Shown: one piece after another, positions 26,568 through 26,746 of the stretch | Position numbering within the stretch: the stretch's first letter is position 1 | Layout: each line of letters starts with the position of its first letter | From: Escherichia coli | GTDB lineage: Bacteria; Pseudomonadota; Gammaproteobacteria; Enterobacterales; Enterobacteriaceae | Strand: one strand, 5' to 3' | DNA: 41,409 nt | Assembly: GCF_003334385.1 (NCBI RefSeq) | Contig: NZ_QOWN01000039.1 | Program-made: the position numbers and the translations under genes | The notes under the pieces: model-generated | Told to the model about the DNA's origin: nothing | Database searches by the model: none | What the model saw: only the letters and a program-made list of their open reading frames with translations

Positions 26568-26746
26568 AGAACTTCCTGTTTTAATTATTGATTATCCTTA
26601 ATCATAAAAATAATGTATGTATTTATTAATTAAATACATATTACTAATATAAATAAATTTTGCTTGATTCATGCAAGCGGCATTAATACTATTTATACTA
26701 ACGTCAATATACAACCCACCCAATCTATTTTATTAGAACATACATC
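26568..26746. promoter_or_regulatory. AT-rich divergent gspA / gspC-O promoter region with a 9-5-9 inverted repeat (ATGTATTTA-TTAAT-TAAATACAT, 26617..26639)
   Basis: 179-bp intergenic, markedly AT-rich, between divergent operons; perfect 9-bp-arm palindrome. Confidence 0.55.

Follow-up and report, generated by a model that had tools for sequence, protein, structure and literature searches.

A perfect inverted repeat in the divergent gspA–gspC control region of Escherichia coli is a plausible candidate operator

The divergent gspA–gspC control region of Escherichia coli carries a perfect 10-5-10 inverted repeat, TATGTATTTA-TTAAT-TAAATACATA, at positions 26616–26640 of the window, by which we mean the whole 41,409-nucleotide stretch of DNA analysed here. 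Judged from its sequence, the palindrome is a plausible candidate for a counter-silencer or H-NS operator, and it is only modestly unusual. We tentatively read it as a dyad bound by protein and central to the H-NS-silenced gspAB / gspC-O control region, most likely a LeuO-type core site combined with high-affinity H-NS DNA beside a SlyA site, a reading to which we assign somewhat less than an even chance. It would be a new candidate of a known element type in a well-studied organism.

The spacer between the two genes spans 26568–26746 (179 nt, 22.9% G+C), with the G+C content dropping to 18–20% in 100-nt windows. It is bounded by gspA (25098–26567, minus strand, 489 aa) and gspC (26747–27562, plus strand, 271 aa, GTG start), as given by the open reading frame list and the RefSeq annotation, and RefSeq assigns the two genes of matching E. 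coli genomes to these same strands. The first-pass annotation had described a 179-bp AT-rich spacer between divergent genes, and this description holds. The locus is present in 3141 of 5426 complete E. coli genomes; in strain APEC E956, gspA is annotated as frameshifted.

The palindrome itself had been described as a 9-5-9 repeat, ATGTATTTA-TTAAT-TAAATACAT, at 26617–26639. Direct reading returns exactly these letters and the symmetry is indeed perfect, but the arms are longer by one pair on each side: the inverted-repeat search and the spacer analysis place them at 26616–26625 and 26631–26640, each of 10 nt, 100% complementary and separated by a 5-nt gap. The full element is 25 bp long with a G+C content of 8%. 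Nor is it centred in the intergenic region, as had been proposed, since its centre at 26628 lies 29 bp from the spacer midpoint at 26657.

The level expected by chance was estimated from 20,000 dinucleotide-preserving shuffles of the spacer, scored for perfect repeats with loops of 0–10 nt. Arms of at least 9 nt arose in 6.1% of shuffles and arms of at least 10 nt in 1.9% (2.1% with loops up to 12). The length of the palindrome is nominally unusual for one spacer and not so given the many AT-rich spacers of a genome, and is weak evidence by itself. In the 41-kb window, perfect repeats reach an arm length of 9 nt or more at nine places, among which the gspA–gspC repeat is the only nearly all-A/T member; at survey level, most of the other eight have G+C-rich stems with A/T-rich flanks and look like terminators. 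The core of the palindrome was not printed in any paper found by a literature search for the sequence.

Shimada et al. 2014 (PMC3946193) predicted TTAATA-17-TATGAT for gspAB and TTGATT-17-TACTAT for gspC in this spacer. The predicted sigma-70 promoter of gspAB maps to 26601–26629 on the minus strand, with its -35 hexamer at 26624–26629 and its -10 hexamer at 26601–26606, and our own promoter scan finds the same one; the centre of the palindrome therefore coincides with the predicted gspA -35 hexamer. Locating the published motif places the predicted gspC-O promoter at 26664–26692 on the plus strand (-35 at 26664–26669, -10 at 26687–26692). If transcription starts ~7 nt past each -10, the palindrome centre would lie near -34 for gspA and near -71 for gspC. 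The predicted gspC -10, TACTAT, sits within the word TAATACTATT (26684–26693), which is also found in the gspA–gspC spacers of two orthologues (L026 and L027) whose GspA proteins are only 41–42% identical; CTTGCTT-like words near it are likewise common to the orthologue spacers. The word TAATACTATT probably represents a conserved core promoter for gspC, and the assignment of that promoter is supported by the recurrence of the word at such low protein identity. Panyukov and Ozoline class this spacer among the ‘promoter islands’, in which promoter-like sites are numerous. Separately, a direct repeat, AATCATAAAAATAATG / AATCATAATAAAGATG, occurs at 26600–26615 and 26780–26795 (81% identical, 180 nt apart), one copy overlapping the predicted gspA -10 and the other lying within gspC; it may be a chance product.

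A single palindrome had been attributed to the spacer, but the repeat search also returned an imperfect second copy, ATCTATTTTATTAGAACATACAT, at 26723–26745, which matches the 23-mer of the palindrome at 18/23 positions. A match of this quality was reached by 0.28% of shuffles of the right flank (P = 0.003). By hand count, the copy has an odd centre and 8 of its 11 pairs are complementary; 106 bp separate its centre from that of the palindrome. The copy lies beyond the predicted gspC promoter, near +36 if the start site assumed above is correct, and it ends one base short of the gspC GTG. It may belong to an operator pair or act as a downstream element for H-NS.

Published binding data place proteins on the spacer as a whole. 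It is listed as H-NS-associated by Shimada et al. 2014 (PMC3946193), and the H-NS regulon column of Curran et al. 2017 includes the locus (PMC5797941). In the IPOD-HR study, the gspA–gspC spacer is the sole prominent in vivo protein-occupancy peak left in its chromosomal region, and its authors state that the exact position of H-NS within the spacer was unknown at that time. From the literature, both H-NS occupancy and silencing thus apply to the spacer in its entirety. The first-pass annotation had suggested an operator for a dimeric regulator or a nucleation site for silencing, and this idea gains from the H-NS listing, the IPOD-HR peak and the binding of SlyA in vitro, although none of these places a protein on the palindrome: in the literature we found, published binding covers the whole spacer, and no protein contacts are mapped to the palindrome.

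We scanned 240 nt for the high-affinity H-NS motif tCGATAAATT (Lang et al. 2007, PMC2094087). The best match (8/10) is at 26650–26659 on the plus strand, and 7/10 matches are found at 26612–26621, 26620–26629 and 26622–26631. The palindrome zone is the AT-richest part of the spacer and contains all but one of the five sites in the scanned DNA that match at 7/10 or better. H-NS does not require dyad symmetry, and nucleation would therefore leave the palindrome as such unexplained.

SlyA, a dimeric regulator that counter-silences H-NS, binds the 179-bp fragment in EMSA with an apparent Kd of 50–100 nM, and its overproduction raises gspCDEF 2.4-fold (Curran et al. 2017, PMC5797941). The EMSA primers of that study match our sequence from 26568 onward and from 26746 backward, so that the fragment is exactly the spacer. 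Curran et al. write the predicted SlyA site as TTATATTAGTAA, ‘79 bp upstream of gspA’ (PMC5797941). In our motif scan, the sole exact SlyA-type TTA-N6-TAA 12-mer of the spacer (PMC5797941, Table 3) is TTACTAATATAA at 26641–26652; it begins right after the last base of the palindrome and so abuts it from outside. Within the palindrome, the even-centred TTA-N6-TAA pattern occurs only as one-mismatch 12-mers, one of which, TTAATTAAATAC (26626–26637), stands 3 bp from the exact 12-mer. As SlyA footprints usually cover at least 40 bp (PMC3173223) and the two 12-mers lie in tandem 3 bp apart, as at fimB, SlyA protection could well reach into the palindrome.

The closest resemblance of the palindrome is to the sites of LeuO. 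In Fragel et al. 2019 (PMC6698644), the LeuO core site is given as a 19-bp palindrome with 7-bp half-sites 5 bp apart and a T-N11-A signature, found at site II of Pcas and site I of PleuO. The LrhA paper (PMC12968389) states that LrhA uses the sites of LeuO and that LBS I is nearly identical to LBS II, and Curran et al. (PMC5797941) count Pgsp among the LeuO SELEX targets. We located these sequences in MG1655 DNA by our own search: Pcas site II is ATATTCA-CAGTA-TGAATAT, PleuO site I is ATATTGA-TTTGG-TGAATAT, and a third site in Pcas, which from its position we infer to be ‘LBS I’, is GTATTAA-ACCAA-TGAATAT.

The central 19 bp of the gsp palindrome (26619–26637), GTATTTA-TTAAT-TAAATAC, reproduce the 7-5-7 geometry perfectly. 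They also contain T-N11-A, with T26622 and A26634 about the centre at 26628, a feature that any odd-centred A/T palindrome acquires easily. Against the strict motif ATATTCA-N5-TGAATAT, the gsp core scores 10/14 (5/7 per arm), a level that ~26 other sites in the window also attain. Against the loose motif RTATTNA-N5-TNAATAY, it scores 14/14 and is the sole match without mismatch in the 41-kb window; a full match arose in 0.4–0.6% of spacer shuffles (P = 0.004–0.006), although this motif was built from the three LeuO/LrhA sites after the gsp sequence had been seen and several other motifs had been tried. Of six other LeuO/LrhA target spacers, yjjP-yjjQ and envR-acrE hold one-mismatch matches to the loose consensus (P = 0.047 and 0.059), and the remaining four (ssuE-elfA, paaZ-paaA, bglG-phoU and yfaL-nrdA) show no enrichment of the motif. 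Taken together, the resemblance of the gsp core to LeuO sites appears real, and is a lead rather than a case of membership.

A weaker LeuO-type dyad, ATATTAC-TAATA-TAAATAA (26638–26656, two mismatches), lies directly next to the core and shares sequence with the predicted SlyA 12-mer; pairs of neighbouring dyads are the usual target of LysR-type tetramers. Comparison of the palindrome by eye with the consensus sites of ArcA, Fur, NagC/Mlc, IHF and Nac gave no convincing match. A ‘gsp’ match in a FlhDC SELEX paper proved to be a different gene and was set aside as a false lead.

Conservation within the species was assessed in six E. coli alleles comprising the spacer and 600 nt of flanking coding DNA (26268–27046). 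The flanks hold 27 variable columns, and only one of the 179 spacer positions varies. This position, 26620, carries T or a minority C, and the T26620C change lies in the left arm and breaks one arm pair. The six alleles give no clean tree for the direction of the T/C change, and we therefore do not propose that compensation proceeded stepwise within the species. A BLAST count over 26548–26645, made with a query anchored in gspA among E. coli genomes that carry the locus, found 3001 of 3134 genomes (96%) identical to the window and 106 (3.4%) with the exact C allele. The perfect palindrome is nearly universal in E. coli, as is the whole spacer.

Orthologues outside E. coli were taken from the protein database via GspA, which yielded one close cluster at 75% identity (Escherichia ruysiae and other Escherichia) and more distant relatives at 41–45%. 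The orthologous loci are all syntenic, with gspAB beside rpsJ and gspCDE divergent. Two contigs from the GspA genome scan were unusable as orthologues, one an E. coli-like Flavobacterium contig with errors and the other a 273-nt scrap. Contigs of Flavobacterium paronense (L006, with many single-base indels) and Alkalicoccobacillus porphyridii (L007) carry E. coli gspA–gspC DNA, which looks like assembly contamination.

The 13 loci of the E. ruysiae type collapse to three spacer alleles that are identical across the palindrome zone. Between E. coli and this type, gspA differs by 23% over its first 300 nt and gspC by 28%. The spacer diverges by 9.4% outside 26613–26652 and by 34% inside, so that the palindrome zone forms a fast-evolving island in a strongly conserved spacer. 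We count the 1 versus 27 variable columns and the 9.4% versus 23–28% divergence as support for purifying selection on the spacer. The E. ruysiae-type site reads AATGCATTTA-TTGATA-TTAATGCGTT, with six arm substitutions and a 6-nt gap between the arms. Eight of the ten arm pairs are intact, two of them by way of substitutions in both arms (T:A to A:T and T:A to C:G), and in simulations at least eight pairs survived six random substitutions with P = 0.015–0.03. The LeuO half-site spacing is not kept: the site becomes GCATTTA-N6-TTAATGC and has no match with up to two mismatches to the motif with 5-bp spacing. The E. ruysiae-type spacer holds exactly one TTA-N6-TAA, located within the degraded right arm.

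Spacers of the orthologues at 41–45% GspA identity contain no comparable repeat, with one unrelated exception. This is a perfect 18-10-18 repeat, TATATTTATAATTATTAT-CAGTATTGCC-ATAATAATTATAAATATA, at 2717–2762 of L009, a distant syntenic enterobacterial orthologue (GspA 45% identical), which was reached in 0 of 3000 shuffles. The first-pass annotation had named conservation across gsp promoters as a check on the palindrome. The outcome is mixed, in that the element is nearly invariant in E. coli and retains 8/10 pairs in the E. ruysiae type, but its perfect form is lost there and it is absent from distant orthologues.

From these observations, we propose the following working model. The palindrome would serve as high-affinity AT-rich DNA for H-NS and also as the symmetric core site of a counter-silencing regulator, for which the LysR-type protein LeuO, or else LrhA, would be the best candidate; the SlyA site would lie directly beside it. 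Because the predicted gspA -35 forms its centre, and the predicted start of gspC follows ~71 bp downstream, a protein on the palindrome would block initiation at gspAB and displace or reorganise H-NS at gspC-O. At a distance of 106 bp (~10 helical turns), beyond the gspC promoter, the weaker copy could act as the second anchor of a loop or of an H-NS bridge. The contacted base pairs, the identity of the regulator and both start sites are those that we infer here.

Several other explanations must be weighed against this model. It is a serious possibility, only slightly less probable than this model, that the palindrome arose by chance in AT-rich, H-NS-coated DNA, its symmetry having no role and any sequence of the same composition serving equally well. 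A/T sequence is readily self-complementary (9-nt arms in 6% and 10-nt arms in 2% of shuffles), a genome has hundreds of AT-rich spacers, and the H-NS near-matches spread over 26582–26659, beyond the dyad. Between the E. coli and E. ruysiae types, the palindrome zone also equals or outpaces the flanking coding DNA in divergence (34% versus 23–28%), a broken C allele persists in 106 genomes, and distant orthologues have no counterpart. Chance would nonetheless have to account for independent nominal signals that agree (P ~0.02 for the palindrome and P = 0.003 for the second copy), for the 8/10 pairs kept with two double-sided changes (P ~0.02), for the full degenerate LeuO-type match (P ~0.005) and for the exact overlap with the predicted gspA -35. 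The preferred model carries difficulties of its own, in that the strict half-site match is just 5/7 per arm, the loose consensus is post hoc, both promoters are predictions, the E. ruysiae type has a 6-bp gap, the zone is the fastest-evolving of the spacer (34%), one arm pair is broken in 3.4% of E. coli with the locus and the element is lacking in distant orthologues. A composite SlyA operator, with tandem dimers on 26626–26637 and 26641–26652 and the palindrome mattering only through its right half, is in our estimation unlikely. It draws on the binding of SlyA to the 179-bp fragment, on the exact site that abuts the palindrome with a one-mismatch 12-mer 3 bp upstream, as in fimB OSA2-3bp-OSA1, on the usual footprint of at least 40 bp (PMC3173223) and on the single exact TTA-N6-TAA that the E. 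ruysiae-type spacer also has inside its degraded right arm. However, the palindrome is odd-centred (TTA-N5-TAA) and the SlyA 12-mers are even-centred, the inner 12-mer matches TTAGCAAGCTAA at only 6/12 positions, one-mismatch 12-mers are common (eight in 179 bp) and the left arm is left unexplained.

Two further readings concern nucleic acid structure. The palindrome could form a cruciform, or be prone to melting in negatively supercoiled DNA, which would link the two promoters to superhelical stress or present H-NS with a structural target; as a perfect short-loop repeat in extremely AT-rich flanks, it has the sequence features of a cruciform, and the DNA hairpin is predicted at -5.9 kcal/mol (z = -2.3). 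The pairing is partly kept between lineages, through two double-sided changes, and the loop grows from 5 to 6, which a hairpin would tolerate better than a protein dimer. Against this, A/T arms of 10 bp are on the short, weak side for in vivo extrusion, and no extrusion would be expected of the imperfect second copy, in which 8/11 pairs form by hand count. We regard a structural role as improbable, and equally improbable its corollary that the dyad was selected as DNA structure rather than sequence, as a supercoiling-sensitive switch for a cryptic type II secretion system. Finally, the repeat might act at the RNA level, as a hairpin within an extended leader of gspC (plus strand) or of gspA (minus strand) that starts from some promoter outside the predicted pair, which would be conceivable in a ‘promoter island’ rich in promoter-like sites. 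The plus strand folds at -9.1 kcal/mol, and the hairpin persists in a hypothetical 171-nt leader (z = -2.4), whose predicted fold shows the palindrome as a local hairpin and contains no long-range pairing with the second copy; the E. ruysiae-type plus strand still folds (-6.5) via a G-U pair. Yet the palindrome is upstream of each predicted start site and therefore would not be transcribed from the predicted promoters, and neither strand keeps its fold consistently, with values of -9.1 (window), -4.4 (C allele) and -6.5 (E. ruysiae type) on the plus strand and -7.2, -7.2 and -3.1, respectively, on the minus strand. No Rfam match falls below E = 0.28 and none comes near a gathering score; the terminator scan raised no flag, and the stem has no run of G-C pairs. 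On balance, we consider the RNA hairpin very improbable indeed.

The preferred reading, a LeuO-type dyad within H-NS DNA beside a SlyA site, bears on the gspC-O secretion system of E. coli K-12, which under laboratory conditions stays silent together with its chitinase substrate. A defined 25-bp dyad that overlaps one predicted promoter, lies upstream of the other and has a partner on its far side offers a concrete target. Were LeuO or LrhA to bind it, gsp would be a further locus with a high-affinity core site, beside cas and leuO, and the natural T26620C allele would provide a ready-made functional test.

The element shares features with three types of known system. As with the H-NS nucleation sites of proU and bgl, it combines 8% G+C and many TpA steps with a cluster of 7–8/10 matches, whereas its best match reaches only 8/10; like the upstream and downstream elements of proU and bgl, the palindrome and its second copy flank a silenced promoter, and an in vivo occupancy peak coincides with the spacer. 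SlyA operators (TTAGCAAGCTAA / TTA-N6-TAA; fimB OSA1/OSA2 and hlyE in E. coli K-12) provide a second comparison. SlyA binds the gsp fragment in vitro, and the arrangement 26626–26637 / 3 bp / 26641–26652 is the same as the fimB OSA2-3bp-OSA1 layout (PMC3173223), but the gsp palindrome is odd-centred and matches the consensus poorly, with the exact motif outside it. With the LeuO sites, the gsp core has in common the setting of an H-NS-silenced AT-rich promoter, the odd centre and the RTATTNA half-sites. It differs from them in its half-site, GTATTTA against ATATTCA (5/7), and the T at half-site position 6 is absent from the three defining sites and present in the candidate envR-acrE and yjjP-yjjQ sites. 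Finally, at Pcas two LeuO sites bracket the start, and at gsp the palindrome and its weak copy likewise bracket the predicted gspC promoter.
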